From positions 10,381-74,380 of the forward strand of contig DASXZH010000075.1 of assembly GCA_036502005.1 (NCBI GenBank): a stretch of DNA of 64,000 nt, read 5' to 3'. Each line of letters opens with the position of its first letter. The first letter of the stretch is position 1. This DNA is from Fimbriimonadaceae bacterium. GTDB taxonomy: Bacteria; Armatimonadota; Fimbriimonadia; Fimbriimonadales; Fimbriimonadaceae. Below, piece by piece: positions 12,367 through 43,031 of this stretch. The notes below the pieces were generated by a model. The model ran no database searches. It was given only the letters and a program-made list of their open reading frames with translations, and was not told the origin of the DNA. Made by a program: the position numbers and the translations under genes.

Positions 12367-14688
12367 CTAGTTCGGAGATAACTGGGTTTTGGGAACGATA
12401 ACCAGCTGGGTTCCTAGAGTTTGCCAAGACAGTTGTAATAACGAACCCTGTTGATCAACGAAGAAATCGATCTTTATAGGGTATTTGTGACCAGCGACTA
12501 GGTCGTAGCGGCCGCTAGAGTAATTGGCGAAAATATCAATCCAACCATTAATCACTTCCCTCCCGTTTAGCCACAGCCGTACGCCGCCGTAGTTCTCCAC
12601 ATAGAGGTTATACGGGCCAGAAAATTGAGGGGTGATATAGCCTGTCCACTCCGCAGACCAGTTTGTGCTAGCCACTCCACTAGCCGGCGATCCACTACCC
12701 CAGTTGAAGTTAATGGTCGGGTCAAGCCTGGCAAGCGTCGGGGTACCGGATGGAGTCTGGGTTCCGTTGAAATATTTACCGGTAAGACCGGTTCCGGCAG
12801 AAACCAGTGGTGGAAATGAATAGTAATAATAGTTTGTGGCACTCGGTTTATAATTCCCAAAAACCGCCCTTAAAACTAGAGTTGCGTTAGAACTGATTGT
12901 GATGGGGCCCGAATAACGGTTAGAGTAAGTGTTCGGCACTGTGCCATCGAGCGTATAGTAAATCCTCGCTCCTGCAGTTAGATCGCTAAGCGTTACTTGG
13001 AATGAGCTAGAAAATTTGCCGCTTGCCACGTTGGAAGTTGGTAAAGCGGTTGCTAGGCCATAGACTCCCAATGTGCCGTTTGCGGCAGCATAGACTTTTC
13101 CATTTGCAACCGTAGGAGTAACAAATTTTACGGCGGGCCCATATACAGATGGGCCCTGCACGTTTGGACTGCGATATAGCATTTTGAGCGTCGATGCATC
13201 GTAAGCGTAAAGATATTCTTGTCCGTCACTCGTATACGAGGCAGTATCAATCGCCCACACGATCCCGTTCGCTGTTCCATTGGATGAAACTGAAGGCGTA
13301 GTCCCAAAAATGTTGAACTTATTGGCAGAGCTTGCAATGGCTGGAGTGGATATGGCGCCGCTAGATATTCCAAAAGACTGCAAGGAGCCGTTACTGCCGC
13401 CGACGTAGATGTGCCCGTTAAAGTAAGCCATCGCTCCCCAGACGCCTCTGTTCGCGTTATCGACTTCCTGAGCCACCGCATCCGTCGAGTTGTACCCGCC
13501 CAGGTCGGTGACATCACATAAATAAATTGTTCCCGATTTACCTTCTTGAACAAGAAGCTTAGGGTGCGCCTTACTGCCCACGCTGGGCGGCAGCAGCATG
13601 ACGCCTCCAGATCCTTGATCTGTATCGGTATCGTCCAAGCTAAGCTGGGCGTTCGGCGTAAAGGAGTCAGCGACTGCAAACGGCAAAGTCATTCTTAGAA
13701 TCGAGTCACCCCAAGCCGCCGTCGATGGGTCGAAAGCGCCGTTACCGGTCGCAAAATAGAGGCTAGTTCCATCGCTCGCTGGTCCCGCCCCGCTCATCCA
13801 TATTCCTCCTGCCGCAAGGCCGCCATTTGGATCGCTGGTTGCGTTTGGGGTCGTATTGAAAACTCCCTCCTGAGCGAGAGTGCTCGCGTTATAAGCCATT
13901 AGCCAGCCGTGATACGGGTAGGCATCGCCGTGCGAAGCCCAAGCAATGACGAGTGTCTTTGGAGCATTCGCATTGGGTCCAGGAATTAGTAACAAGGCAG
14001 GCCGCTGAGCTTGCCAAAGCGGGTTAAAAGGCACATTGCCATTCCCGTCGCTGCCATCGCCTGTGCCGTTTACGGTCGATGCAATGTTCACGGGACCCGG
14101 AGACGTAGCTCCCGGGGGCGTAATTGCTTCACTGCCAGTGGTTATATCTAAGGCGTGCAGATCCTGGCCGCATGACACATTGTTGCCAGCCTTTGACACT
14201 AAATAGATGATGCCTTTCCCATTTGTCTCATCGATAACGGGCGTTCCAGTGATGCCGACAACGGGACCCACGTCAAAGTAAGGGGGAAAGATGTCCGAGG
14301 CGGGAATGCCAGGATCTAAGTTTACGGACCACAGTGGCAATCCGGCTTGATCGGCGTCGAAGGCATAAACCGAGTTATTTTCTGTCGCCACGTAAACGAC
14401 GTTGTGCACCGTACCGTTAATTGTGACGCCGGGAACGTAAAGAGGCTGAGCGAAAATCTCACCATCCACCGAATCGTCAAACAGCAAGCCAAATGAAGCC
14501 GCATTAACATTAGAAGGCGTCAGAATCCTCTCGTTCGGGTTAAGTCCGACGCGATTATTGTCGTTATGCCAGGTAGTCACGGCAGTTTGGGCCGAAGCTG
14601 CCGCAGTTAAACAGGCGAGGACGAAAGCGACGAAGTGCTGCTTAACGTTAACCAGCCGCAGACTTGGGAATTGATTGTTTGCAAGCAT
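12367..14688 (-). CDS. secreted beta-propeller (PQQ-like repeat) protein with chitobiase/hexosaminidase-C-like and PA14 C-terminal domains
   Basis: 773 aa with a signal peptide. TTWHNDNNRVGLN...AQPLYVPGVTINGTVHNVVYVATENNSVYAFDAD is propeller-type. ARIYYTLDGTVPNTYSNRYSGPITISSNATL is the CHB_HEX_C-type module. GLTGKYFNG...NWSAEWTGYITPQFSGPYNLYVENYGGVRLWLNG is PA14. Confidence 0.75.
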   Translation of the reverse strand: MLANNQFPSLRLVNVKQHFVAFVLACLTAAASAQTAVTTWHNDNNRVGLNPNERILTPSNVNAASFGLLFDDSVDGEIFAQPLYVPGVTINGTVHNVVYVATENNSVYAFDADQAGLPLWSVNLDPGIPASDIFPPYFDVGPVVGITGTPVIDETNGKGIIYLVSKAGNNVSCGQDLHALDITTGSEAITPPGATSPGPVNIASTVNGTGDGSDGNGNVPFNPLWQAQRPALLLIPGPNANAPKTLVIAWASHGDAYPYHGWLMAYNASTLAQEGVFNTTPNATSDPNGGLAAGGIWMSGAGPASDGTSLYFATGNGAFDPSTAAWGDSILRMTLPFAVADSFTPNAQLSLDDTDTDQGSGGVMLLPPSVGSKAHPKLLVQEGKSGTIYLCDVTDLGGYNSTDAVAQEVDNANRGVWGAMAYFNGHIYVGGSNGSLQSFGISSGAISTPAIASSANKFNIFGTTPSVSSNGTANGIVWAIDTASYTSDGQEYLYAYDASTLKMLYRSPNVQGPSVYGPAVKFVTPTVANGKVYAAANGTLGVYGLATALPTSNVASGKFSSSFQVTLSDLTAGARIYYTLDGTVPNTYSNRYSGPITISSNATLVLRAVFGNYKPSATNYYYYSFPPLVSAGTGLTGKYFNGTQTPSGTPTLARLDPTINFNWGSGSPASGVASTNWSAEWTGYITPQFSGPYNLYVENYGGVRLWLNGREVINGWIDIFANYSSGRYDLVAGHKYPIKIDFFVDQQGSLLQLSWQTLGTQLVIVPKTQLSPN

Positions 14689-14835
14689 ATATATCCTAGC
14701 GGATTCGCAGCCTTTCAGCTAACTATTAAGACTGGAGGGAATAGGCGAATACACTAAGAATATAGGTCTGATCACGCAAAGATGCTGACGACAAAGTTCT
14801 AACTTGTCATCAGCAATGTTGCGTCCGGCATCTCC

Positions 14836-17208
14836 CTAGTTCGGAGATAGCTGGGTCGACGGCACCGTCACCAGTTGCGTCCCCAATGTTTGCCACTGAA
14901 GTTGGCAAAGGGATCCGCCCTGATTCTGGTAGTAGTCGATCTTAATCGGATACTTGTGGCCGGCGATCAAGTTGTACCGTCCACTTGAATAACCGGTCGG
15001 GGCCTGATCAACCCAGCCGTTGATGACTTCTCGTCCATTAAGCCAGAGTCTTATTCCATCGTCGCCAATTAAGTAAATATTATACGGGCCCGTGAACTGT
15101 GGCGTGATAAAGCCATTCCATTCTGCAGACCAGTTCGTTGTACCAATGCCTGCCCCTGGCGATGCGCCTGCCCAGTTGAAGTTGATGGTTGGATCAAGCC
15201 TCGTGAGAGTTACGGTTCCCGCTGGTGTCATCGTGCCGTTGTAGTATTTGCCGGTAAGGCCTGTGCCGCCAGAAACCACCGGCGGGAAGGAATAGAAATA
15301 ATAGTCAGCCGAGCTTGGCCCATAGCCAGTAGCGACCGCTTTTACCACCAATGTCGCATTGGCTGAGATTGTGAACGGAGTCGAATAACGGGCAGAGTAG
15401 GTATTCGGAATCGTACCGTCCAGAGTGTAATAAATCCTCGCCCCAGGGGTCGCATCGTGGAGAGTTACCTGGAAGGAGCTCGAGAAACTGCCGGTCGCCA
15501 CGTTGGATGTTGGGTTCGCCGTAAAGGATTCCAACCCAAAAACACCGATGGTGCTTCCTGAACCCACGTATACTTTTCCATTTGAAACTATCGGTGTGAT
15601 GAACTTAACCGACGAGCCAAAGTTGTCTCGCCCTTGAAGGCTTGCGCTACTGTAGAGGGTGTTCAACGTGGTTGCATCGTACGCGTAGAGATACTCTGGC
15701 CCCTTGCTGCCGAACAGGCTAGAATCCACCGCCCAGACAATGCCATTCGATGTCCCGTTAGAGGATATTGAGGGGGTGGGTGCTGGCCAGCTAAAGCCCT
15801 GGCTTGCAGCGGTCACCGGTGTGGAAGTTAAAATACCTTCCGATATTCCGAACGCGGATATCGCGTGACCGGGACTACCGATATAAACGTTACCGTTATA
15901 GTAAGCCATCCCACCCCAGACGCCGCCATTAGCTCCATCGACTTCTTGAACCATGGCGTCCGTTGGGTTATAACCGCCCAGTCCCGTGACATCGCATAAA
16001 TAGATGGTGCCCGACTTCCCTTCTTGAACCAACAGATTGGGATGCGCAGTACTGCCTACGCTTGGAGGAAGTAAGATCAGCCCTCCCGAGCCTTGATCCG
16101 TGTCGCCATCGTCCAAGCTAAGCTGGTCATTCGGCGTAAAGGAGCTTGTCACGGTAAAAGGCAGGGACATTTTTAAAATCGAGTCGCCCCATGCCGCTGT
16201 GCTTGGATCAAACGTGCCGTTGCCCGTTGCGAAATAGATGCTTGTTCCGTCGCTAGCGATGCCAGACCCGCTCATCCAAACGCCGCCGGCTGCGATTGGG
16301 TATCCGCTTGGATCATTAAGTGCGTTGGGGGTTGTATTGAAAACGCTCATTTGTGCAAGCGAACTAGCGTTATAAGCCATCAGCCAGCCATGATAAGGAT
16401 TGGCATCTCCATGGGATGCCCATGCAATCACGAGGGTCTTTGCGAGAGTCGCCTTACGAATGGGCAAAAGGAGCAAAGCGGGCCGCTGGAACTGCCAGAG
16501 AGGGTTGAAGGGTACGTTCCCATTCCCGTCTGTGCCCTCGCCAGTTCCTGCCACCGTTGCCGTGATGAGCACTGGCCCGGGGCTTGAAGCACCGTTCGGA
16601 GTAATGGCTTCGTTTCCAGTCGTGATATCAAGAGCGTGAATCCGCTGAACGTAAACGTAGTTGTTGCTCCCGCTTGCTTCCTTCGTTTTTGCCACGAAAT
16701 AAATGATTCCTTTGCCATTAGTCTCGTCAATAACTGGGGTTCCTGTAATGCCTATTTCTGGAACCACGTCGGTGTAACCGTTAAAAGCATCGTTACTTGG
16801 CACGGATGGGCCCTCGTTTACGTGCCAAAGAGGTGTGCCCGCAGTGTCGGCATCGAAGGCATAGATCGAGTTGTGCTCGGTGACCACATAGACCACGTTG
16901 TGCACCTTGCCGTTAATGGTGACTCCAGGCACATACAGCGGCTGGGCATACACCTGGCCATCCACTGCGTCGGCGAAAAGCAAGCCGAACGTGGTCGGCG
17001 AAACGTTCGCTGGTGTCAGCTTCGTTTCAGTCGAGTTCAGGCCAGTGCGGCTATTGTCGTAGTGCCAGGTTGTGACCGGCGTTTGAGCAGTGGCAAAAGC
17101 GGCAAGAAAGATCGCTGACAAAACCGTCAATTTTTTTTTGCGGTTAAGCAATAACGCTTTGGAAATTCGTTTGGGGAAAAGCATAGACGTCCACTCCGAG
17201 TCTCTCAC
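14836..17208 (-). CDS. paralogue of 12367-14688 (propeller + CHB_HEX_C-like + PA14)
   Basis: 790 aa, collinear with its neighbour and roughly 70% identical by eye over the full length. Same three-domain order. The start may instead be the internal ATG at 17184. Confidence 0.75.
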   Translation of the reverse strand: MRDSEWTSMLFPKRISKALLLNRKKKLTVLSAIFLAAFATAQTPVTTWHYDNSRTGLNSTETKLTPANVSPTTFGLLFADAVDGQVYAQPLYVPGVTINGKVHNVVYVVTEHNSIYAFDADTAGTPLWHVNEGPSVPSNDAFNGYTDVVPEIGITGTPVIDETNGKGIIYFVAKTKEASGSNNYVYVQRIHALDITTGNEAITPNGASSPGPVLITATVAGTGEGTDGNGNVPFNPLWQFQRPALLLLPIRKATLAKTLVIAWASHGDANPYHGWLMAYNASSLAQMSVFNTTPNALNDPSGYPIAAGGVWMSGSGIASDGTSIYFATGNGTFDPSTAAWGDSILKMSLPFTVTSSFTPNDQLSLDDGDTDQGSGGLILLPPSVGSTAHPNLLVQEGKSGTIYLCDVTGLGGYNPTDAMVQEVDGANGGVWGGMAYYNGNVYIGSPGHAISAFGISEGILTSTPVTAASQGFSWPAPTPSISSNGTSNGIVWAVDSSLFGSKGPEYLYAYDATTLNTLYSSASLQGRDNFGSSVKFITPIVSNGKVYVGSGSTIGVFGLESFTANPTSNVATGSFSSSFQVTLHDATPGARIYYTLDGTIPNTYSARYSTPFTISANATLVVKAVATGYGPSSADYYFYSFPPVVSGGTGLTGKYYNGTMTPAGTVTLTRLDPTINFNWAGASPGAGIGTTNWSAEWNGFITPQFTGPYNIYLIGDDGIRLWLNGREVINGWVDQAPTGYSSGRYNLIAGHKYPIKIDYYQNQGGSLCQLQWQTLGTQLVTVPSTQLSPN

Positions 17209-19613: not shown

Positions 19614-21212
19614 ATGTTAAAGTCATTGCCTGAAAAGGCCAATTTGGACCACCTTCGCGGCCAAGCGAAGGATCTTCTCTCTTCCTATCGAACTGGCGAT
19701 TCAACGGCAATTGCGCGTGTTGTGGTGCAGTTGCCCAACAAAGAGAATCGCAAAATCTCTCTTCATGATGCCCAGCGCGCGGTCGCGAAAGAGTACGGCT
19801 TCGAGAGTTGGCCAAAGCTGGTTCATCACGTTGACGAGCTTAATGCCAGACGCGGCATCACTCCCGCGATCGCGGAGCAGTTTATTAGCTTGGCTTTCTC
19901 GCACCGTAGCGAGGAAATCCGCAAACTCCTAAAGCTTTATCCGGGCCTGCCACGCTATAACAGGGAAACCGCTTTGGTATGGGGAAGTTTGGATTTTGTA
20001 CGAGGAAAGGTCTCACAAACCGAGATATTGGGCGAGAGAGGATGGACGCCAATAGAGTACGTTGCCTATTCTCGTGTTCACCAGGCATTCCCCGAGCGTT
20101 ATGAGCCATTGGAAACCTCCGCTCAATATCTTCTTGAAAACGGCGCAGACCCCAATTCGAGCCATAAAGGCGATGGGCCGGATTCGCCACCCCTTAGCGC
20201 CCTCTACGGTGCATCCGGCGAAAGCTTCCACAAGGGCATTGTTAAATTGCTGCTTGAGAAGGGAGCTAACCCCAACGATGGCGAATCGATCTATCATGCC
20301 GCGCAATACTTCCAGCCGGAAATCCTTCAGTTGCTGTTCGACCACGGCGCGAATATCTCCGACAAAACCAAAGAGTGGGGCAACACTCCAATATTCTTCC
20401 TTTGTGGCCACCGGCCATCTGATTCGCAATACGAAACTGCCGTGAACGGCATCGAGTGGTTTTTGCAACACGGCGCGGATCCCAATATCACCTCGTACAA
20501 CCACCAGAGCACGCCACTTCATGCCGCTGCGGGCCTTGGAGGAACCAGACTGGTCGATATTCTACTGGCCCACAAAGGTGACCCAAATGCCAAAAGGGCA
20601 GATGGCCGAACGCCTTATGAGATCGCCCTCGTTACAGGCAACAACTACGCTGCCGACGCCCTGCTAAAGGCTGGGGCAAAGCCAACCGAAGATCCCAAGA
20701 TCGAGTTCCTTGCCGCTGCTCTTGCCTCCGATAAGAACAAAACCGATCAACTATTAAAGGATCATGCAAACCTGCTCGAAGAACTCTCGTCGGAAGGCGG
20801 GCACGTTCTCGTTCGGTTGGCAGAACTCGGAAATGAAAAAGGGGTTGCCGCTTTACTGGCGGCGGGCTGCCCGCCAAATCTGCTGGACGACTCCAAAATA
20901 ACGCCCCTTCATTTCGCTTCTTATACCGGCAGGGCGGGCATTGTCCGTTTACTCCTGCAGGCTGGAGCACAAACCGAAATCAAGGACGGCAGCTACAATG
21001 CGCCGCCGCTCGGTTGGGCATTGCATGGGCTTTCGTTTAACCCGAACCCCAAGGGGGATTATTCTGGGGTCATTAAAGCGCTTCTAGGGGCCGGTGCTGA
21101 CCCGGCTCCTCTTAAGGAGTATTCAGAGGATCGTGAGCATATCCCGGAACAGGTAAGGCAGTTTGTTATGGAGTTAATGCGAGGCACTCTCACGAATGAA
21201 GTTTCTGGATGA
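19614..21212 (+). CDS. ankyrin repeat protein
   Basis: Repeated TPLH.AA..G....V..LL..GA.PN units (for example STPLHAAAGLGGTRLVDILLAHKGDPN and ITPLHFASYTGRAGIVRLLLQAGAQ). The N-terminal helical module contains SLHDAQRAVAKEYGFESWPKL. Confidence 0.8.
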   Translation: MLKSLPEKANLDHLRGQAKDLLSSYRTGDSTAIARVVVQLPNKENRKISLHDAQRAVAKEYGFESWPKLVHHVDELNARRGITPAIAEQFISLAFSHRSEEIRKLLKLYPGLPRYNRETALVWGSLDFVRGKVSQTEILGERGWTPIEYVAYSRVHQAFPERYEPLETSAQYLLENGADPNSSHKGDGPDSPPLSALYGASGESFHKGIVKLLLEKGANPNDGESIYHAAQYFQPEILQLLFDHGANISDKTKEWGNTPIFFLCGHRPSDSQYETAVNGIEWFLQHGADPNITSYNHQSTPLHAAAGLGGTRLVDILLAHKGDPNAKRADGRTPYEIALVTGNNYAADALLKAGAKPTEDPKIEFLAAALASDKNKTDQLLKDHANLLEELSSEGGHVLVRLAELGNEKGVAALLAAGCPPNLLDDSKITPLHFASYTGRAGIVRLLLQAGAQTEIKDGSYNAPPLGWALHGLSFNPNPKGDYSGVIKALLGAGADPAPLKEYSEDREHIPEQVRQFVMELMRGTLTNEVSG

Positions 21213-27913: not shown

Positions 27914-29722
27914 CTACGACTTCCTCATAAAAAGCCACCATTCCAAACTCAGCACGAATAAGGCGAACAGCACAAGCGGCTTCCACCAATCGAGCAGACG
28001 GCTCGTAACATCATTAGAAGCCACATTCAATCCGCCAAGCATGAGCTTGTCGACAGGGGCGATATTGGACTGCGAATCGTCACCGAAGGTGACATATATA
28101 GACCGGCTCGGCTTCGAATGAATATCATATCGCCCGACTGTATTTAAATCGCGAAGGATATATTGGCCGTTCGTCGGCGGCACCGTCAACGAATCCCCGT
28201 TTGGAGCGGTAATCGACAGATCCGAAGCGCCAGCGGGCAAGGCGATCATTCTCCCGGCGGGGACCGCTAGGTTGGAATTAAAAGTCTCTTTTGGAGCCAA
28301 GAAATCCAAAATGTTGCCGATGAAGATCGGGAAACTCACCTGTAACGGGAAGTCGGAATTCAAAGGCGCAAAAGCAGCATAAACGTGCCGTTGAACCCCA
28401 AGCGAGGCCACCAACAAAGGCCCATCGCTTCCCTGCACCAAAACTTCCGCATCGGGAGCAGCGATCACCCGTTGCGCCGAAGCAATAAAGGTTCCGCTTA
28501 AAGCGACGTTCTTTAGCAGGGGTGAATCCGACTGGGATTTTACGGTTGGTTTTGGTGTGGTCCCATTTACTTTAACGGGACTGCCTTGGCCCGCATTGCC
28601 CAAAGTAAGAACGCCAAGGGCGTTCACCGGCTGCTCTGGCACGTTGTCGAAAACCACCAAATCGTAATGACCTGTAGAAGGAACGCTCTCAGACTTATAC
28701 AAAACCACCCGGGGATCGAGACTTAGAGCCCGTTCTAAGAACAAGTCTCCCTTGCCAACGAGTAGCACGTTAAGGGTGCTCGCGCCCACTAAAGAAACGG
28801 CATAGTTATCGGCTGCCAAATGGTCGCCATCATCGAGCTTTGCCTCGATAACTTTGGCACCCGCCGGCGCCGGGAGGGTTTGCCCAAAGGTGGATTTCCC
28901 CTTCACGTCAACCTCGAACGAGTTGAACAACTTGCCATCGGCGTAAAGGTTCAGAACTCCTTTGGAATCTGAAAATCCATAGTTTTTTAGGCCACAAAAA
29001 ATCTGCGGCCCTTTGCTGGAGTCTGCTTGCCCTAGTGCCGTTACAGCCGTGTTGGCATCGGATGTGCCGATGTGCTGAAACTCAAGGTTCGCCCTGCCTG
29101 GGCTGAAATTTTGCACTTCCGGAAACACTCCGTCGGATAGTAAAACTATCCGCGCAGCAGGATCCTTTGAAACTAAAGAAGAGGCAAGCCTCAAAGCTTC
29201 TCCCACATCACCAACCGTGTCCGAGGGTTCCACCGAGTTCAAGGCTTGCCGCATTTTGCCCTGGTCATTGGAAAGGGGCGACAAAACTCGCGGGGTTGGC
29301 CCCGCTTCAATCAGGCTCAGCCTGTCCCCAGGGGTCGCCGCATCGATAATCTTCTTCGAGAGGCGTACCGCCTCACCCAATCGGTTCGGCTTCACGTCCG
29401 TTGCCGACATGCTCGCCGAACCGTCGATCACGATAACGGTAACCTGCCCGCTCAGGTTGTTCGACCTTATTTGAGGACGTGCAAAGGCAAAAACGACCAA
29501 CAGCAAAGCTAAAAGCTGCAACACCAAAAGCCAACTAAACCGAAGCTTCTGAATCAGCGAGTTGGCTCGCACCTCGGTCGTCATGTTCGGCCAAAGGAAG
29601 CTGGCGGGGACTTTGAACTCCTTCCGCCGCATCTTCAGCAGATAAAGCAAGATGATAATCCCAGCCAACGGAATCAGCCAAAACAGCGCGCCCGCATTAA
29701 CCAAATTCACGTGGAGAGCCAC
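27914..29722 (-). CDS. BatA-like VWA domain membrane protein
   Basis: N-terminal LFWLIPLAGIIILLYLLKMRRKEFKVPASFLWP (BatA_N type), MIDAS VIVIDGSASM, and a C-terminal TM. 602 aa. Confidence 0.75.
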   Translation of the reverse strand: MALHVNLVNAGALFWLIPLAGIIILLYLLKMRRKEFKVPASFLWPNMTTEVRANSLIQKLRFSWLLVLQLLALLLVVFAFARPQIRSNNLSGQVTVIVIDGSASMSATDVKPNRLGEAVRLSKKIIDAATPGDRLSLIEAGPTPRVLSPLSNDQGKMRQALNSVEPSDTVGDVGEALRLASSLVSKDPAARIVLLSDGVFPEVQNFSPGRANLEFQHIGTSDANTAVTALGQADSSKGPQIFCGLKNYGFSDSKGVLNLYADGKLFNSFEVDVKGKSTFGQTLPAPAGAKVIEAKLDDGDHLAADNYAVSLVGASTLNVLLVGKGDLFLERALSLDPRVVLYKSESVPSTGHYDLVVFDNVPEQPVNALGVLTLGNAGQGSPVKVNGTTPKPTVKSQSDSPLLKNVALSGTFIASAQRVIAAPDAEVLVQGSDGPLLVASLGVQRHVYAAFAPLNSDFPLQVSFPIFIGNILDFLAPKETFNSNLAVPAGRMIALPAGASDLSITAPNGDSLTVPPTNGQYILRDLNTVGRYDIHSKPSRSIYVTFGDDSQSNIAPVDKLMLGGLNVASNDVTSRLLDWWKPLVLFALFVLSLEWWLFMRKS

Positions 29723-36881: not shown

Positions 36882-38966
36882 TCACGAGCTTCCTCCAAGA
36901 GTTTCAACAAGCTGCATCGTCCCCCCGATCACTTCCGTTCCGATCGGCGTGCCGGGATGAAAGCCCGATATTGTCCCGCTCAGAACGAAACGGTCGCCCG
37001 AAATCTCTGATGCCAACTGGCTTTCCGCTTCCCAAGCATCGCTTGCCGAGCCGGGGCCGATTTGAACGGTTTGGCCAGGAAGTAGCGCTTTATCGGTCGC
37101 GCCATTCTTACCGAACCCTTGAACCTTGATATGGTCTATTCGGTAGGCGCTAAGATTGGTGATCTCGCCCTTAAGTCCGTCGTCTGTTTGCGTAATCTTG
37201 CCGGCAACCCACTTTTGACCATCAAGTTTTTGGCCCATGCTGAACTCATAGAAGCCCAAATTGGAAGATGTTAAGTTCGGCACAAGGATCTGGCCAACGT
37301 CAATTGGATTTATATTATTCGACCTTCTCGAACCAGGACCGCGATATCTCATGCTGGGATAACCGTCCTCCAACTCGTTACCTGGCGCCAAAAAGTCGAC
37401 GTCGTGTAGCTTTAGGTCGTACCCGCCGCTGTGGGGAAAAAACATTTGAACGCGCCCCAAATAGTAAGAAAAATCCGACCGGCTGTCGGCAAGGACAATC
37501 CCGTTCGTTTCCTTCGAAAGGCCCGTTCCGTAAAGGCTGCCCGCGAACTTAAAGAAAACCATGGCGAAGGCAATGCTGATGACGGGCGCGGTAAGCCAGG
37601 CCCACTCACCCCTTTTAAGCCGCCTCAAAATAAGCAGGTTTAGAGGAACAACAACGGCCACATAAACGAGCAAAATCTCAAAGACCGTCTTCGTTTCCGG
37701 TAGCTTCATTTGGAAAGGATTGCGCTGTTGGCCCGAATAGTAGGGCATCGCGGGCGTGACAGGGCCGCTGTAGGTCGTTCGGTAACTGCCCGTTGTGGTC
37801 GTAATAGAACCTGTTGTGGTCGTGGTCGTAGTTGAGGGCCCGGTGGAGTAAACGGTGGTAGAACCTGAGGGGCCTGAATAGCTGAAGTACGGACCGTTAG
37901 GACCTCCGCCAATGCCAAACGCTGTGGCATCCACCATTTCAGTTGCCGGAGCCGTTCCCTTCAAGTTCAAAAAGGCCTTAAAGAACTCGCCTCTGTTATC
38001 CAAATCTCTAAAAGGTGATTCAAAGGGGTCCGCCGCGAAGTACAGCACCTTTCCGGCTCCAAAGGGCCGGCTCGCCACAATCGGGTTTCCGTGATCGCTA
38101 TCCAGAACCTGGGTCCCACTGGCCTTTTGAGAAGAGGCGACCGTAATCGAATGGTCGATGCTCGTCGAGAAGTCGTCAAACTCCAGGTCGAGCTTCGGCA
38201 GAGTTTTGGTTTCAACGTTCTTAACAGGCAGGATTTCTTGCCAGCGCGGATCCCGCAATATCTGGGGCGAAGCTCCGCCAAAAAACACCAGCGTGCCGCC
38301 ACAAAGAACATATTCCTTTAGGGCCTTCGCTGCGGTATCGCTCATCCTTTCCGAACCGGGCCCTAACAAAACAAGCCAAAAGCCTTGGTAGCCAACACCC
38401 CGATCGGGCAGGATCTTTGGCTTACCGTAAATGTCCGATAGGGTCATTTCCGAGCCGGGGATCTTGATGCCCTTTAAGTAGTTTACGGAACCGCCCTCGT
38501 CGGCGATCATTAAAACCTGTGGCCCCCCTCCGCTAAGGTTGGTGTTATCCCATTCGGAGTCGATGTGGCCGTTATCGGTATCGAGCTTTAAGTCGAGGGG
38601 TTCGTAAAGTTGGGCGATATCCGGGTAGGCGACAAACTCCTTTCTGGAATGGGAGGGTAAGTTGACCGGGTAATGAATGGTCCCGTTGGGCGTGCCGAGA
38701 GTCACTTCCCCCTTCGTGCTGGGCCCAACATTTTGAACGTCGATTAGGAGTGGAAAATGCTGGGTCGGGTTTGCACCCGGGAATAGTGAGGTTGCGTAAA
38801 CCTGTAGGTTCTTTTGTTGAGAAAACGCCGCGCAGGAAATGAGCAGGGCGCAGACGCAAGCCGCCGTTCGGATTATGCGGAACCGATGCCCTGTTACTAT
38901 CCCCACATGCTTGCCCTTGATATGTAACGTAATAGTAGAACGTTGGTTTATACCTGTAACGTTCAA
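36882..38966 (-). CDS. large hypothetical membrane protein with poly-Thr linker
   Basis: 694 aa. Signal-like RTAACVCALLISCAAFSQ, a Thr-rich stretch (STTTTTTTGSITTTTGS), and central TM helices (VFEILLVYVAVVVPLNLLIL, WLTAPVISIAFAMVFFKFAG). The start codon is uncertain. Confidence 0.6.
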   Translation of the reverse strand: MNVTGINQRSTITLHIKGKHVGIVTGHRFRIIRTAACVCALLISCAAFSQQKNLQVYATSLFPGANPTQHFPLLIDVQNVGPSTKGEVTLGTPNGTIHYPVNLPSHSRKEFVAYPDIAQLYEPLDLKLDTDNGHIDSEWDNTNLSGGGPQVLMIADEGGSVNYLKGIKIPGSEMTLSDIYGKPKILPDRGVGYQGFWLVLLGPGSERMSDTAAKALKEYVLCGGTLVFFGGASPQILRDPRWQEILPVKNVETKTLPKLDLEFDDFSTSIDHSITVASSQKASGTQVLDSDHGNPIVASRPFGAGKVLYFAADPFESPFRDLDNRGEFFKAFLNLKGTAPATEMVDATAFGIGGGPNGPYFSYSGPSGSTTVYSTGPSTTTTTTTGSITTTTGSYRTTYSGPVTPAMPYYSGQQRNPFQMKLPETKTVFEILLVYVAVVVPLNLLILRRLKRGEWAWLTAPVISIAFAMVFFKFAGSLYGTGLSKETNGIVLADSRSDFSYYLGRVQMFFPHSGGYDLKLHDVDFLAPGNELEDGYPSMRYRGPGSRRSNNINPIDVGQILVPNLTSSNLGFYEFSMGQKLDGQKWVAGKITQTDDGLKGEITNLSAYRIDHIKVQGFGKNGATDKALLPGQTVQIGPGSASDAWEAESQLASEISGDRFVLSGTISGFHPGTPIGTEVIGGTMQLVETLGGSS

Positions 38967-39032: not shown

Positions 39033-40487
39033 GTGGCACCACCTTTGGGGCAACGCCATCCCATTGTTACAAGAATCGAACTCAGATTGTCATCCGGCCA
39101 ATCGATGTCGGCCGACCCAATCCTTGACCAGCTTTCTGCAACAAATGTAGGCGACTACGCAAGCCCCCAGTTGCCGGTAGATCCGGGCGCATACACGAAC
39201 ACGTTCGATCCCAATGGCAACCTCACCGGCTCCGTGGGTGGGGCAGACAACTTAACTCTGGCATATCAATACAATGTCCATAATCAACTAATAAGCGTTA
39301 CCGACGGTGGAACAACCCCGGTCTCCTATGCAGACGCTTCCTACAACCCTGAGGGTCTCCGTATTTCCTCGGATTGGGGCAACGACGAGTACAACGCGTC
39401 CAGTTACCTTTACGACGGAACAGCCATCTTGGCCCAAACGGAGACCAACTACAACTCGCCTTCATTCTACGTTTGGGGACCTACTGGCCTGGTTATGACC
39501 GTTGCCTGGAACGATCCAAGCTACACGTTCACCTTCGATCCAAGCGGAAACAACGTGGGGGTCCACGACCAATACAATCTAGCGCCACAGGCCAGCAACT
39601 TTTACGATGCCTATGGCGAGAGAATCATTGGAACGACCAGCCAAAACATGTTCGACGAGATCGGATACAAGGGCCAGTTCGGCTGCATAACCGATTGGAA
39701 CACGAATCTCGTCTATTGCCAGCAGCGCTACTACTCACCCGTTATGGCCGCGTGGATCACCCGCGACCCCACCGGCGCAGACGGGGGCATGAACGTCTAC
39801 GAATTCTGCGGAAATAACCCCGTGATGATAAGCGATCCAAGTGGGCTGGAAGGAGATTGGGACTGGGGTCAATACTTCTCCGACATGTGGAAGTTCACAA
39901 AGGGAATGGGTAAGGCGGCATTACACCTGGTCGTAGCCACTGTGAAGGGTGCAGTTCTTAATAATCCGGTTAACCCCCTTTGCTGGTATGGCATGATCAA
40001 GAGCGATTATGAAATGTGTAGTCACCCCGCCGCCACAATCGAAGGAATTAAACAGGGAGCCTTAAATTTCTGGGGCGGCCTTAAAGGTGAAAGGGGTATG
40101 GAAGCTCAGGGAGATAGCTTCGGTGATATTCTCGGCACGGTGGCACTGATTGCCTCCGGGTCAGCCGAAGCGGGTGGCGAGTACTGTGTCTATCAGGCAG
40201 TCTTGGAAGATGGCGCGCCAACATATATCGGTATGACGAAAAACCCAGTTCGCAGGGCTATGGAGCACCTTCGTTCTCCGAGGGGGATCGCTATTAAACC
40301 AATAAAAGGACTCGAGAGATTGACCGAAGCTGACGCGAGAGCTGTAGAACAGGTGCTTATCGAACGAAATGGAATATCGCCCAACGGTACACTAACGAAC
40401 AAGATTAATAGCATAGCGAAGTCAAATCCCATATATCCTGGTGCAATCAAAAGAGGTAACTATCTTTTGAAGCGGGCAGGTTACTAG
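39033..40487 (+). CDS. short RHS/YD-repeat protein with RHS-associated core and GIY-YIG-like C-terminal toxin domain
   Basis: YD-type repeats (NTFDPNGNLTG, YLYDGTAILA, FTFDPSGNNVG). Core YCQQRYYSPVMAAWITRDPTGADGGMNVYEFCGNNPVMISDPSGL. Tip YCVYQAVLEDGAPTYIGMTKNPVRRAMEHL...EQVLIERNG...LTNKINS has GIY/YIG/Arg/His/Glu/Asn in GIY-YIG order. The start is GTG 39033 or ATG 39105. Confidence 0.75.
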   Translation: MAPPLGQRHPIVTRIELRLSSGQSMSADPILDQLSATNVGDYASPQLPVDPGAYTNTFDPNGNLTGSVGGADNLTLAYQYNVHNQLISVTDGGTTPVSYADASYNPEGLRISSDWGNDEYNASSYLYDGTAILAQTETNYNSPSFYVWGPTGLVMTVAWNDPSYTFTFDPSGNNVGVHDQYNLAPQASNFYDAYGERIIGTTSQNMFDEIGYKGQFGCITDWNTNLVYCQQRYYSPVMAAWITRDPTGADGGMNVYEFCGNNPVMISDPSGLEGDWDWGQYFSDMWKFTKGMGKAALHLVVATVKGAVLNNPVNPLCWYGMIKSDYEMCSHPAATIEGIKQGALNFWGGLKGERGMEAQGDSFGDILGTVALIASGSAEAGGEYCVYQAVLEDGAPTYIGMTKNPVRRAMEHLRSPRGIAIKPIKGLERLTEADARAVEQVLIERNGISPNGTLTNKINSIAKSNPIYPGAIKRGNYLLKRAGY

Positions 40488-40490
40488 TCC

Positions 40491-40964
40491 TTGTCAAGAA
40501 AAAAAACAGAAGTTGGCGATTTGGTCGAAATTTCGACCAAGGACGGTCTCGTCTACGCTATGTACACTCATTCCGATAAGTCCATGGGCAGTCTTTTGAG
40601 AGTTTTTGCGCAGTTCTACCCATCTAGACCCCATGACTTTGAAGTGATAGTCAGGACGCCAGTAATGCTCAGCGTATTCTTTCCCCTCCAAGGTGCCTTG
40701 AACAGGGGCATCTTTACAATAGTCGGGAACTTTGCAATCCCCGAAGACCTACAGCGATTTCCAATTTTTAAATGTCAAGGGTTGCGAGATCCTAGAAACA
40801 GCCGCATCGTTTGGTGGCTGTGGGATGGCAAGAAAGAATGGCGCGTTGGCGACCTAACCGAAGCACAGCAGGACCTCCCGGAATACCAAGTCGTAAACGA
40901 TGCAATGCTTATCGTCATGATCGAGCGAGGGGCCAAGAAACTTGACACTAACTGTGGAAGTTAG
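40491..40964 (+). CDS. candidate cognate immunity protein
   Basis: 157-aa ORF starting at a TTG 3 nt after the toxin stop. Lower G+C than its surroundings. The call rests on position immediately downstream of a polymorphic-toxin tip. Confidence 0.55.
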   Translation: MSRKKTEVGDLVEISTKDGLVYAMYTHSDKSMGSLLRVFAQFYPSRPHDFEVIVRTPVMLSVFFPLQGALNRGIFTIVGNFAIPEDLQRFPIFKCQGLRDPRNSRIVWWLWDGKKEWRVGDLTEAQQDLPEYQVVNDAMLIVMIERGAKKLDTNCGS

Positions 40965-41076
40965 CCCTATCTACCGAATAAATTGGTCTTTCGCTCACTC
41001 GTAGCATCTAAACAAGCTGATTAGAAGGTCTAAGCGATTAGCTACCCAAGTCTTACGAGAGCTCAAAGCTCGATGA

Positions 41077-41400
41077 TCAATGCACCTCCGCTTCCCATCC
41101 GTCGTACTCTCCCCCAAGACTTCCGGCCAGTTCTTCAAATTTCGGTTGAAGGTGACTCAACACCTGGGTCGGATTCGTGGAACGTGTCGTAATTAAGAGC
41201 AAATACGATGTGCCATCTGCTCCGGGCCTAACCTCCGACGTAAGTTCCGGATCATCGGAGATCAACACCTGGGCTCTACCCGCAATTTCGTCGGTCGGGA
41301 AGTAGAGGTAAAAATGAACTAGTCGCGGCAAAGCCCCCGGCTTCATCGCATCTACTAGTTCAGGCAGAATTCGCTCATTTTTTTTCTTGAATAGTTTCAT
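41077..41400 (-). CDS. RraB (regulator of ribonuclease activity B) family protein
   Basis: 107 aa. VHFYLYFPTDEIAGRAQ and the C-terminal GGEYDGWEAE resemble the E. coli RraB pattern (HHL...EYDGWGT). Confidence 0.55.
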   Translation of the reverse strand: MKLFKKKNERILPELVDAMKPGALPRLVHFYLYFPTDEIAGRAQVLISDDPELTSEVRPGADGTSYLLLITTRSTNPTQVLSHLQPKFEELAGSLGGEYDGWEAEVH

Positions 41401-41729: not shown

Positions 41730-43031
41730 CTACAGAACCGGAGCCGCTTCTTCGGCGACCTCGGCGGGGACAGGCACTGGGATCATTCCTGATTCCAAAT
41801 AAATCGGGTGCATGATTCTGTTCAACTTTGGATGCTCAAACGTAAACCAAATGGCACCCAAAATGCAGCAAGCCCCCGTGAACATAACTGTGCGAGGCAC
41901 CCCAACGGCATTAGCTAAAAACCCCGCCAGAAGGCTACCAAAAGGGGTCGATCCGAAGAACGCCATCGTGTAGTAGCCCATAACCCTGGCTCGTTTGTCC
42001 TCCGGCACAAGAGACTGGATAACGGTATTGCTGACGGAAGCGCACTGCATCAAGCCGAACCCGACAAAGACCATCAAAATAAACGCCACCCAGAAAACGT
42101 TTGAGAAGCCAAATAAGATCAGCGCGATGCCTAGCGTCGCGGAAGCGATCTGGAGCATCCTGGTTAAGCCCACTACCGTTTTTCGCACGGCCAGAGATAG
42201 GGCTGAAGTAAGGGCTCCGACACCGGAACCAGCAGTCAGCCAACCCAGAGTTGCCGCATCGCCGTGCAGGACCTGGCTGGTGAAGGCGGGCAGCAAAACC
42301 ATATAGGGGTAACCCATTAGGCTAATGAGGGCGAAGAGCGTAAGAATCGTGCGGATCGGGCGGAAGTTGCGCACGTAATCCCAGCCCTCGCGGATTTGGG
42401 CGATCATCGTGCGGCCGTCGCTGAGCCTAGGCGTAGCTCGAACTCGCATCATCAGCAGCGAGGCAATAACGGCCAGGTAGCTAACGCCATCGATAAGGAA
42501 GCACCAGCCCGGACTGGATGCTGCGATAACCAAGCCCGCGATGGCCGGCCCGATAAGACGCGCCCCGTTCGCCATAGAAGAGTTGATGGCGATCGCGTTG
42601 CTGAGATCCTCTTTATCCTCCACCATTTGAACCAGAAATGACTGCCTTCCCGGCATATCGAACGCGTTTATGAGGCCCTGGAAAGCGGATAAAGCGATGA
42701 TCTCCCAAAGGTTGATCACATGAGCGAGAGCCAACGTGGCCAACGCCAACGATTGAATGGAGGCAAGCGCCTGGGTCCAAACGAGAAGCCGTTGCCTGTT
42801 CAATCTTTCGACCCAGACCCCGGCAAATGGCCCTAGAATAAAAGCAGCAATTTGGCCGGAAAAACTAACGATTCCGAGCAGCAAAGCTGACTCAGTAATG
42901 CGATAAACCAGATAGCTGGTGGCCAGCCTTGTCATCCAAGTTCCAATCACCGAGATGCTTTGGCCAAAGAAAAACAGCTTGAAGTTGCGGTGTCTTAGGG
43001 CGCGCCATGCATGGGAAAAGGATCTCAACAT
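41730..43031 (-). CDS. MFS transporter (enterobactin-exporter/MFS_3-like)
   Basis: 433 aa with 12 hydrophobic segments. N-terminus WRALRHRNFKLFFFGQSISVIGTWMTRLA is typical of this MFS subgroup. Confidence 0.8.
   Translation of the reverse strand: MLRSFSHAWRALRHRNFKLFFFGQSISVIGTWMTRLATSYLVYRITESALLLGIVSFSGQIAAFILGPFAGVWVERLNRQRLLVWTQALASIQSLALATLALAHVINLWEIIALSAFQGLINAFDMPGRQSFLVQMVEDKEDLSNAIAINSSMANGARLIGPAIAGLVIAASSPGWCFLIDGVSYLAVIASLLMMRVRATPRLSDGRTMIAQIREGWDYVRNFRPIRTILTLFALISLMGYPYMVLLPAFTSQVLHGDAATLGWLTAGSGVGALTSALSLAVRKTVVGLTRMLQIASATLGIALILFGFSNVFWVAFILMVFVGFGLMQCASVSNTVIQSLVPEDKRARVMGYYTMAFFGSTPFGSLLAGFLANAVGVPRTVMFTGACCILGAIWFTFEHPKLNRIMHPIYLESGMIPVPVPAEVAEEAAPVL

Follow-up and report, generated by a model that had tools for sequence, protein, structure and literature searches.

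An RHS toxin cassette in a Fimbriimonadaceae chromosome

We examined a 64,000-nucleotide stretch of a metagenome contig from a Fimbriimonadaceae bacterium (Armatimonadota), hereafter the window, and in it a cassette that encodes a short RHS protein with a GIY-YIG-like tip, an adjoining immunity protein and a convergent RraB-like protein. The original prediction, made without database searches, described a toxin open reading frame (ORF) of 484 amino acids (aa), a 157-aa ORF starting 3 nucleotides (nt) past its stop, and a convergent RraB-family ORF; all three are present as described. We give a probability of roughly two in three to the reading that this is a stand-alone, 5'-truncated orphan rhs C-terminal toxin (rhs-CT)/immunity cassette in the bacterial chromosome. 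The features on which the argument rests are these:

39033..40487, plus strand: toxin ORF, 484 aa from a GTG start, confirmed as an open reading frame
39105..39848, plus strand: RHS stub, about 7 YD hairpins and the RHS-associated core, roughly the C-terminal fifth of an RHS cocoon
39765..39848, plus strand: aspartyl autoprotease motif RDPTG-x18-SDPSGL, with Asp245 and Asp268 (GTG numbering)
39849..40157, plus strand: linker or pre-toxin region, about 103 aa (aa 273-375), helical
40158..40487, plus strand: C-terminal Tox-URI1 domain (GIY-YIG superfamily), 109 aa
40491..40964, plus strand: immunity ORF, 157 aa, TTG start, 3 nt past the toxin stop
41077..41400, minus strand: RraB-like ORF, 107 aa, convergent

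Public gene callers begin the toxin ORF at the ATG at 39105, which yields 460 aa, and the nearest in-frame stop upstream lies 12 codons before the GTG.

The RHS stub is the C-terminal end of a missing shell

The RHS-associated core, first recognised by eye, is confirmed by its profile: NCBIfam TIGR03696 matches aa 191-272 of the toxin ORF at 66.4 bits against a cut-off of 32.5. The Pfam RHS_repeat model gives a single match of 21.7 bits, just below its cut-off of 22, and Pfam places neither DUF6531 nor any further RHS domain in the ORF beyond the stub. An AlphaFold2 model built on 73 homologues (mean predicted local distance difference test score, pLDDT, of 73.6) gives pLDDT 75-93 for the RHS region, where 14 strands at residues 31-178 (ATG numbering) precede those of the core. 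The 14 strands make about 7 hairpins, and the early estimate of about six YD repeats was therefore roughly right.

In Foldseek comparisons the stub matches the C-terminal end of the cocoons of RhsA (7q97), RhsP (8h8a/b), Tse15 (8uxt) and Tse5 (8cp6), with E values of 1e-10 to 1e-12 and root-mean-square deviations of 2.4-3.8 Å over 220-250 columns. The target-normalised TM score is only 0.14-0.20, and about 19%, or one fifth, of the solved shells is covered. The toxin ORF thus lacks the complete YD shell of about 1000 aa with its N-terminal plug, and the claim that the RHS part is too short for the usual cage is upheld. The DPSGL string, singled out beforehand as a cleavage-type motif, forms part of RDPTG-x18-SDPSGL, whose aspartates Asp245 and Asp268 align on D1369 and D1391 of Tse15, the positions mutated in the 'toxin cleavage mutant' structure 8uxt. 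In the alignment of the 73 homologues, D221, D244 and G247 (ATG numbering) are nearly invariant, and the autoprotease is predicted to cut after Leu272.

At the other end, RHS homology begins near aa 19-25 (GTG numbering). Residues 19-57 (…QSMSADPILDQLSATNVG…YTNTFDPNGNLT) match YD repeats in the interior of longer RHS proteins, one such alignment reading F-A-Y-D-P-V-G-N-R…N-Q-L-T…Y-D-D-N-G-N-L-T, and this degenerate alignment runs across the ATG at 39105, so that repeat homology crosses the start used by the gene callers. As judged by these alignments, the toxin N-terminus is a cut through the repeat array and not a domain of its own. It is hydrophilic, and the toxin ORF has no hydrophobic N-terminus, signal peptide or transmembrane segment and no Pfam domain ahead of the YD repeats, in line with the prediction that a signal or trafficking domain would be wanting.

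The rest of the window supplies nothing that could stand in for the missing parts. We find no second RHS sequence anywhere in the 64 kb and no RHS-like sequence in any frame of the 1.1 kb covered upstream of the toxin ORF, where the neighbouring gene is divergent, just as was claimed when a larger upstream rhs gene was discounted. A full-length rhs gene, a type VI secretion system (T6SS), VgrG, PAAR and other secretion genes were likewise sought and are absent from the 64 kb. A metagenome scan with the RHS stub for a parent rhs gene returned 32 pattern matches, none of them related, and is uninformative because even the source contig was missed.

The tip is a Tox-URI1 domain

By BLAST against the first-round matches, aa ~376-484 form a separately conserved domain that occurs on proteins of many architectures, among them one annotated as a filamentous haemagglutinin. 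Relatives of the tip are 41-61% identical to it in a 31-sequence alignment, and across these homologues Y, Y-x-G-x-T, R, A-R-x-V-E-Q-x-x-I, N-x-I-N-S-I and Y are invariant or nearly so. The corresponding positions in the window are VY387, Y398-I-G, R408, R436-A-V-E439 and N456, a string that equals the Tox-URI1 signature 'Y, YxG, R, [RK]xxE, N' defined by Zhang et al. 2012 (PMC3482391). In that survey, Tox-URI1 is partnered by Imm14/26/44/51 and associated with RHS, FilH, TcdB/TcaC and T6SS carriers or repeats.

The assignment to the GIY-YIG superfamily stands by motif order (VY, YIG, RR, H, VEQ, N) and falls short by score, since the window sequence alone reaches 16-19 bits (maximum 19.2) against Pfam GIY-YIG PF01541, below the cut-off of 22.6. 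The same model is matched by 30 of the 31 homologues (best E 2.8e-6). Searched against the PDB, the tip profile finds I-TevI (1mk0), UvrC (1yd6) and BH0048 (1zg2), all weakly at E ~0.1, and the Y/Y/G/R/H positions of the tip align with Y6/Y17/G19/R27/H31 of I-TevI. A model of the tip alone has a pLDDT of 84.5, and eight of its ten best PDB folds are GIY-YIG, again weakly (Foldseek E 0.2-0.7, TM 0.45-0.55). Y387, Y398, R408, H412, E439 and N456 are candidate catalytic residues, and the tip is predicted to be a Mg-dependent DNase. The literature searched holds no biochemically characterised member of Tox-URI1 or of a Tox-URI1/Imm26 pair.

Between the cleavage site and the tip, the linker is modelled as helices at low pLDDT. 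It has no Pfam match, is conserved in some ten homologues whose alignments span aa ~216-484, and includes two moderately hydrophobic segments at aa 291-311 and 362-381 (Kyte-Doolittle maxima 1.0-1.3), which may represent a membrane-interacting segment that aids entry into the target cell. An example of the moderately hydrophobic or glycine-rich stretches in the linker is GDILGTVALIASGSAEAGG, and the equivalent region in other loci (L028/L040/L042, and the ORF N-termini of L006) reads LLLGGFGGLLGGVAYGYG.

The downstream gene belongs to a large immunity family

We scanned species-representative genomes with the toxin alignment, which gave 103 confirmed loci, 80 of which were kept, the closest being 58% identical. 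Of 80 ORFs tested directly downstream of the Tox-URI1 domain, over all fetched loci, 77 are homologous to the 157-aa ORF of the window (phmmer E 5e-46 to 1e-4). A word-indexed search with the immunity protein found two relatives only, one directly behind a 3113-aa SpvB/TcdB/RHS protein with the same C-terminal toxin domain and the other directly behind a bare 120-aa copy of that domain. On this genomic linkage, the 157-aa ORF is the cognate immunity gene of the Tox-URI1 toxin, and its product would be expected to neutralise it. With an RHS core, a GIY-YIG-like tip and so regular a downstream partner, the original idea of an orphan polymorphic-toxin/immunity cassette is well founded. The TTG start of the immunity ORF is supported by an N-terminus that aligns residue for residue with its homologues.

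An exhaustive profile search extends the immunity family to 1444 representatives (at 50% identity) with E<=1e-3. Pfam Imm26 PF15428 scores the window protein at 13.5 bits, below the cut-off of 23.3, and is matched at E<=0.1 by 15 of 60 family members, with a best E of 9.6e-6. The window protein keeps all 16 of 16 nearly invariant family positions, and by these profile comparisons it is a divergent relative of Imm26, either a sister or a sub-branch. The Tox-URI1 toxins are thus accompanied by a large immunity family that the Pfam model captures only marginally. A PDB sequence search with the family found no solved structure. The Imm26-domain protein TipC neutralises a DNase T6SS effector in Yersinia (PMC10833071), a toxin that need not be related to the one in the window.

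An RraB-like domain travels with the immunity family

The convergent 107-aa ORF matches Pfam RraB PF06877 at 35.2 bits (cut-off 23.3, E 2e-8). It had been suggested that this gene could be unrelated to the cassette or a second protective factor. The first option is contradicted by the immunity family itself: many of its representatives are ~250-290 aa long instead of ~155 aa, and a C-terminal RraB domain is present in eight of the ten long ones that were scanned. An iterated hidden Markov model detects an RraB-like domain in 31 of the 150 best immunity representatives, always C-terminal to the immunity domain. Fusion proteins of this kind are P0096, P0098, P0110, P0112, P0116, P0124, P0125 and P0085, and at nucleotide level the RraB-like sequence is fused to the immunity ORF at L064 6336-7151 and L081 328-1149. 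Elsewhere it adjoins the immunity ORF as a neighbour, convergently in L016, as in the window, and also in L024. By this linkage, the RraB-like gene is probably an accessory or second immunity-type component of the cassette.

Vibrio cholerae VC0424 (1nxi) is matched along its whole length by a profile built from these domains (E 0.015); a PDB search with the single RraB-like sequence returned nothing. We take PF06877 to be the family formerly named DUF1260, in keeping with the 1nxi match. In Zhang et al., Imm-VC0424 (DUF1260) is entered among the potential immunity proteins, without an assigned toxin (PMC3482391). The fusions, present in about one fifth of the best immunity members, give the poorly understood RraB/VC0424-like domain a concrete context beside Tox-URI1 toxins.

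Base composition divides the toxin ORF at its cleavage motif

The lower G+C claimed for the 157-aa ORF is real (0.479, against 0.529 for the window); the sampled value of 45% over 60 nt is not, the first 60 nt having 41.7%. The sharper boundary lies inside the toxin gene. G+C at third codon positions (GC3) is 0.665 in the RHS stub and 0.60-0.68 in neighbouring host genes, and past the DPSGL site it falls to 0.534 (linker), 0.464 (toxin), 0.538 (immunity gene) and 0.519 (RraB-like gene); the last of these genes thereby groups with the cassette and not with the host. With GC3 dropping at the cleavage motif, the tip, immunity and RraB-like genes look like one imported unit placed on an RHS module of resident type.

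The cassette is accessory to its surroundings: in two related Fimbriimonadaceae-like contigs the adjoining operon is kept, the cassette is absent and other genes stand at the junction. An 8.2-kb contig in the Logan assembly of SRR11833492 (L085), possibly from the same sample, is identical to the window and spans both junctions. Being 100% identical, it offers no polymorphism from which selection could be judged.

Tox-URI1 carriers come in every length

Loci with this toxin domain are spread over Proteobacteria, Chloroflexota, Planctomycetota, Nitrospirota, Actinomycetota, Bacteroidota, Armatimonadota, a candidate phyla radiation (CPR) bacterium, Chlamydiota and others. Their carriers range from ORFs of >2000 aa through complete proteins of 1242-1897 aa and shorter ones of 200-730 aa to bare cassettes of 95-148 aa. 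In the short ORFs the RHS stub ahead of DPxG measures 2, 16, 24, 45, 46, 55, 94, 141-143 or 159 aa. Some of these short forms stand in arrays behind a long RHS gene (L019, L028, L062; for P0019 the RHS gene in front encodes 1535 aa), and others are isolated (L048, L076).

Short RHS-core proteins of different lineages nevertheless share a boundary, beginning 3-25 aa before a common 'NGLNQYT' (N-G-L-N-Q-Y-T) landmark that lies ~200-240 aa upstream of the DPxGL cleavage site and is internal in RHS proteins of 741-847 aa. The examples are the window at 39105-39140 and P0065, P0056, P0073, P0081, P0067, P0039, P0034 and P0045. As read from these alignments, the common start suggests a defined, exchangeable terminal RHS module, which should help in the annotation of rhs orphans and in working out how much shell the autoprotease needs.

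One relative is an architectural twin of the window protein. In P0032 (443 aa, on a 6.4-kb contig of JGI 3300056388), a Sec-type signal peptide (MKHKYLKIFTFLLACIFFFTHSVAPVLA) leads straight into an RHS stub of ~215 aa, after which come a linker and a Tox-URI1 tip. The protein starts at the same RHS landmark as the window and is likewise stand-alone: the gene upstream is divergent, and 3 nt downstream an Imm26 gene begins. It may be a truly secreted short RHS toxin. The 485-aa P0004 was considered as a second stand-alone mini-RHS protein and ruled out, being the tail of a frameshifted full-length rhs gene. That gene, at L086 2351-9458, would encode ~2300 aa with Fn3, PA14, DUF6531 and RHS repeats and is split by the frameshift into calls of 1838 aa and 485 aa. 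Behind it come some 15 small ORFs, which may be a poly-immunity array or an array of orphans.

Likeness to known systems

The cassette most resembles the orphan rhs-CT/immunity modules of RHS polymorphic toxin loci, known from Enterobacteria and, as 'standalone toxin cassettes', from comparative genomics (PMC3482391), with which it shares a 3' RHS core fragment, a polymorphic toxin tip and an adjoining immunity gene, the lack of an N-terminal delivery part, and tip and immunity genes of lower G+C than the core. It differs from them in standing alone between housekeeping operons, not behind a full-length rhs gene, and in having a possible start codon of its own and, at ~245 aa, a rather long stub. 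As in the Tox-URI1/Imm26 pairs of the same survey (PMC3482391), we see the toxin signature, RHS, TcdB/TcaC and filamentous-haemagglutinin carriers, an Imm26-type gene directly downstream and a broad phyletic spread. However, the window's immunity protein misses the Pfam Imm26 threshold and sits on a divergent branch, one whose frequent RraB/VC0424-like fusion is not listed there.

Compared with the cocoon-forming RHS effectors (RhsA 7q97, RhsP 8h8a/b, Tse15 8uxt, Tse5 8cp6 and TcB-TcC 4o9x), the window protein has the C-terminal shell strands, the core plug, the DPxGL site and the Asp pair, but its stub amounts to one fifth of a shell, without an N-terminal plug (DUF6531-type), PAAR, VgrG or prePAAR, and it lacks a partner that would complete the cage in the way TcB does for TcC. 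The 107-aa protein is like RraB, the RNase E regulator of Escherichia coli, and Imm-VC0424 in its PF06877 match above threshold, its C-terminal GEYDGWE motif and its weak full-length similarity to VC0424. Unlike RraB, it is tied to a Tox-URI1/Imm26-like cassette and shows no sign of an RNase E connection.

Stand-alone toxin cassettes and Tox-URI1/Imm26 pairs on RHS carriers have already been described by comparative genomics (PMC3482391), and therefore the cassette is an ordinary member of a known family and not a new delivery device. By itself it matters little, adding an Armatimonadota example to a toxin/immunity pair catalogued in 2012.

A probable orphan cassette and its alternatives

We favour the orphan reading: the cassette has a 5'-truncated core fragment, a C-terminal toxin and an immunity gene, with no delivery domain. 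Because stub lengths form a continuum, only one fifth of a shell (~19% of a cocoon) is present and YD repeats run across the start, we regard the ORF as an orphan fragment and not a dedicated format. The suggestion of an unusually minimal RHS delivery format founders on these same points and on the lack of any trafficking element.

The toxin ORF would then have kept the last exchangeable module of a larger protein, ~215-245 aa of YD repeats and RHS core with its aspartyl autoprotease. In full-length relatives, to judge from solved RHS structures, this terminal module would close a cocoon of ~1000 aa that holds the toxin, the core would cut after DPxGL, and the toxin would be delivered into a rival cell and cut DNA there. 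Here the front four fifths of the shell and the secretion or trafficking domain are missing, so that neither a closed cage nor self-export is to be expected. The translationally coupled Imm26-like protein would neutralise the nuclease, presumably by direct binding, and would shield the cell from this type of toxin, whether home-made or injected by neighbours. The RraB-like gene would be part of the same imported cassette, as an accessory or second immunity-type factor. We infer that the cassette may serve as a retained immunity locus, and as a reservoir from which the tip could pass to a full-length rhs gene by recombination in the conserved terminal RHS module.

Several points weigh against this reading. 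As the 39 kb upstream and the 23 kb downstream contain no full-length rhs gene, the cassette is not a textbook orphan behind its parent gene, and its role as a recombination reservoir is unproven. The ORF is intact over 1.4 kb and keeps all toxin catalytic and autoprotease residues, and the stub is modelled at pLDDT 75-93 and has host-like codon usage, all of which would fit a functional protein as well as a recent relic. The architectural twin P0032 implies that short RHS-tipped toxins may function in some organisms. Nuclease activity and immunity are themselves deduced from sequence.

These points lend most to the view that the window encodes a functional short RHS toxin that dispenses with a cage, in which the module from 'NGLNQYT' to DPxGL (~215-245 aa) serves as a self-cleaving carrier or release module, the toxin is not enclosed, and export follows a route not visible in the window. 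Such a protein would account for an ORF that is intact and well modelled, for the two intact autoprotease aspartates, for the several short RHS proteins of different lineages that start 3-25 aa before the same landmark, and for P0032, with its clear Sec-type signal peptide, same tip, Imm26 neighbour and stand-alone position. The shared boundary, however, fits a conserved recombination module equally well, as the landmark is internal in RHS proteins of 741-847 aa, and the stubs ahead of this toxin grade in length down to 2 aa. The window protein begins with a hydrophilic, signal-less stretch that is itself a degenerate YD repeat, no secretion genes lie nearby, and P0004, which had seemed another short RHS protein, is the tail of a frameshifted full-length gene. 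We consider this view unlikely, and the orphan reading preferable.

A broader form of the same view is rather improbable. It would hold that the landmark-to-autoprotease RHS module is a self-sufficient cage-less release cassette, sometimes Sec-exported as in P0032, with the window encoding a working minimal RHS toxin, and that immunity to Tox-URI1 toxins has two components, the Imm26-like protein and an RraB/VC0424-like partner fused to it in about one fifth of the family.

The cassette might instead be an intracellular addiction module of toxin-antitoxin type, in which a cytoplasmic toxin, cleaved or whole, is checked by its coupled immunity protein and the pair stabilises imported DNA or brings about an abortive-type suicide, with the RraB-like protein as modulator. 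The 3-nt spacing of the toxin and immunity ORFs, the lack of an export signal, the foreign composition and the frequency of bare 95-148-aa toxin cassettes with an immunity gene are all compatible with such a role. Yet the family is overwhelmingly found on secreted carriers (RHS, TcdB/SpvB, filamentous haemagglutinin), no PADLOC defence model matches the toxin, immunity or RraB-like protein, there is no evident promoter-like site or regulator, and nothing points to an immunity protein less stable than the toxin; we think this improbable. On promoters, a sigma-70 scan found 0 sites against 2.5 expected, and terminator predictions did not exceed background; for this phylum neither scan is informative.

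That the short ORF is an artefact of assembly or gene calling, a tail left over where a frameshift or a chimeric join in the metagenome cut off the rest of a longer rhs gene, is hardly credible: P0004 shows exactly such a frameshift break and the window does come from a metagenome contig, but no RHS-like sequence occurs in any frame of the 1.1 kb upstream, the upstream gene heads an operon that is also conserved in related contigs, and the 8.2-kb Logan SRR11833492 contig, though possibly from the same sample, is identical across both junctions.

Neighbouring genes

The cassette is flanked by ordinary chromosomal genes:

upstream of the toxin ORF, divergent: BatA/VWA/DUF58/MoxR and ABC-2 operon
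downstream of the cassette: MFS_3 transporter and MarR regulator
41730-43031, minus strand: MFS gene, well supported

The MoxR of the upstream operon is 69-72% identical to proteins of named Fimbriimonadaceae and of Fimbriimonas ginsengisoli, which places the source in the Armatimonadota; the contig, of 79 kb, belongs to JGI metagenome 3300036780. RecJ, Rho, MazG, GH42, GH53 and similar genes fill the rest of the window. Rfam has no match in 38.0-42.5 kb. A candidate second, degenerate copy of Tox-URI1 at 41896-42099 (plus strand; tblastn E 3e-4, 71 aa, 35% identity, two in-frame stops) was rejected. It lacks the YxG and RxxE motifs, and its likeness is probably due to chance because it lies antisense to the well-supported MFS gene.

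The BatA/VWA/DUF58/MoxR and ABC-2 operon is conserved in the related Fimbriimonadaceae-like contigs L090 and L091. Inside it lie two paralogous membrane proteins that contain DUF7408, at 36882-38966 and 27914-29722 (both minus strand); for the first of these, the start chosen by gene callers gives 607 aa, against 694 aa for the ORF from TTG. Farther away, 12367-17208 (minus strand) encodes tandem paralogues of 773 and 790 aa, each with a chitobiase-C/Fn3-associated domain and a C-terminal PA14 domain, and an ankyrin-repeat protein of 532 aa is encoded at 19614-21212.

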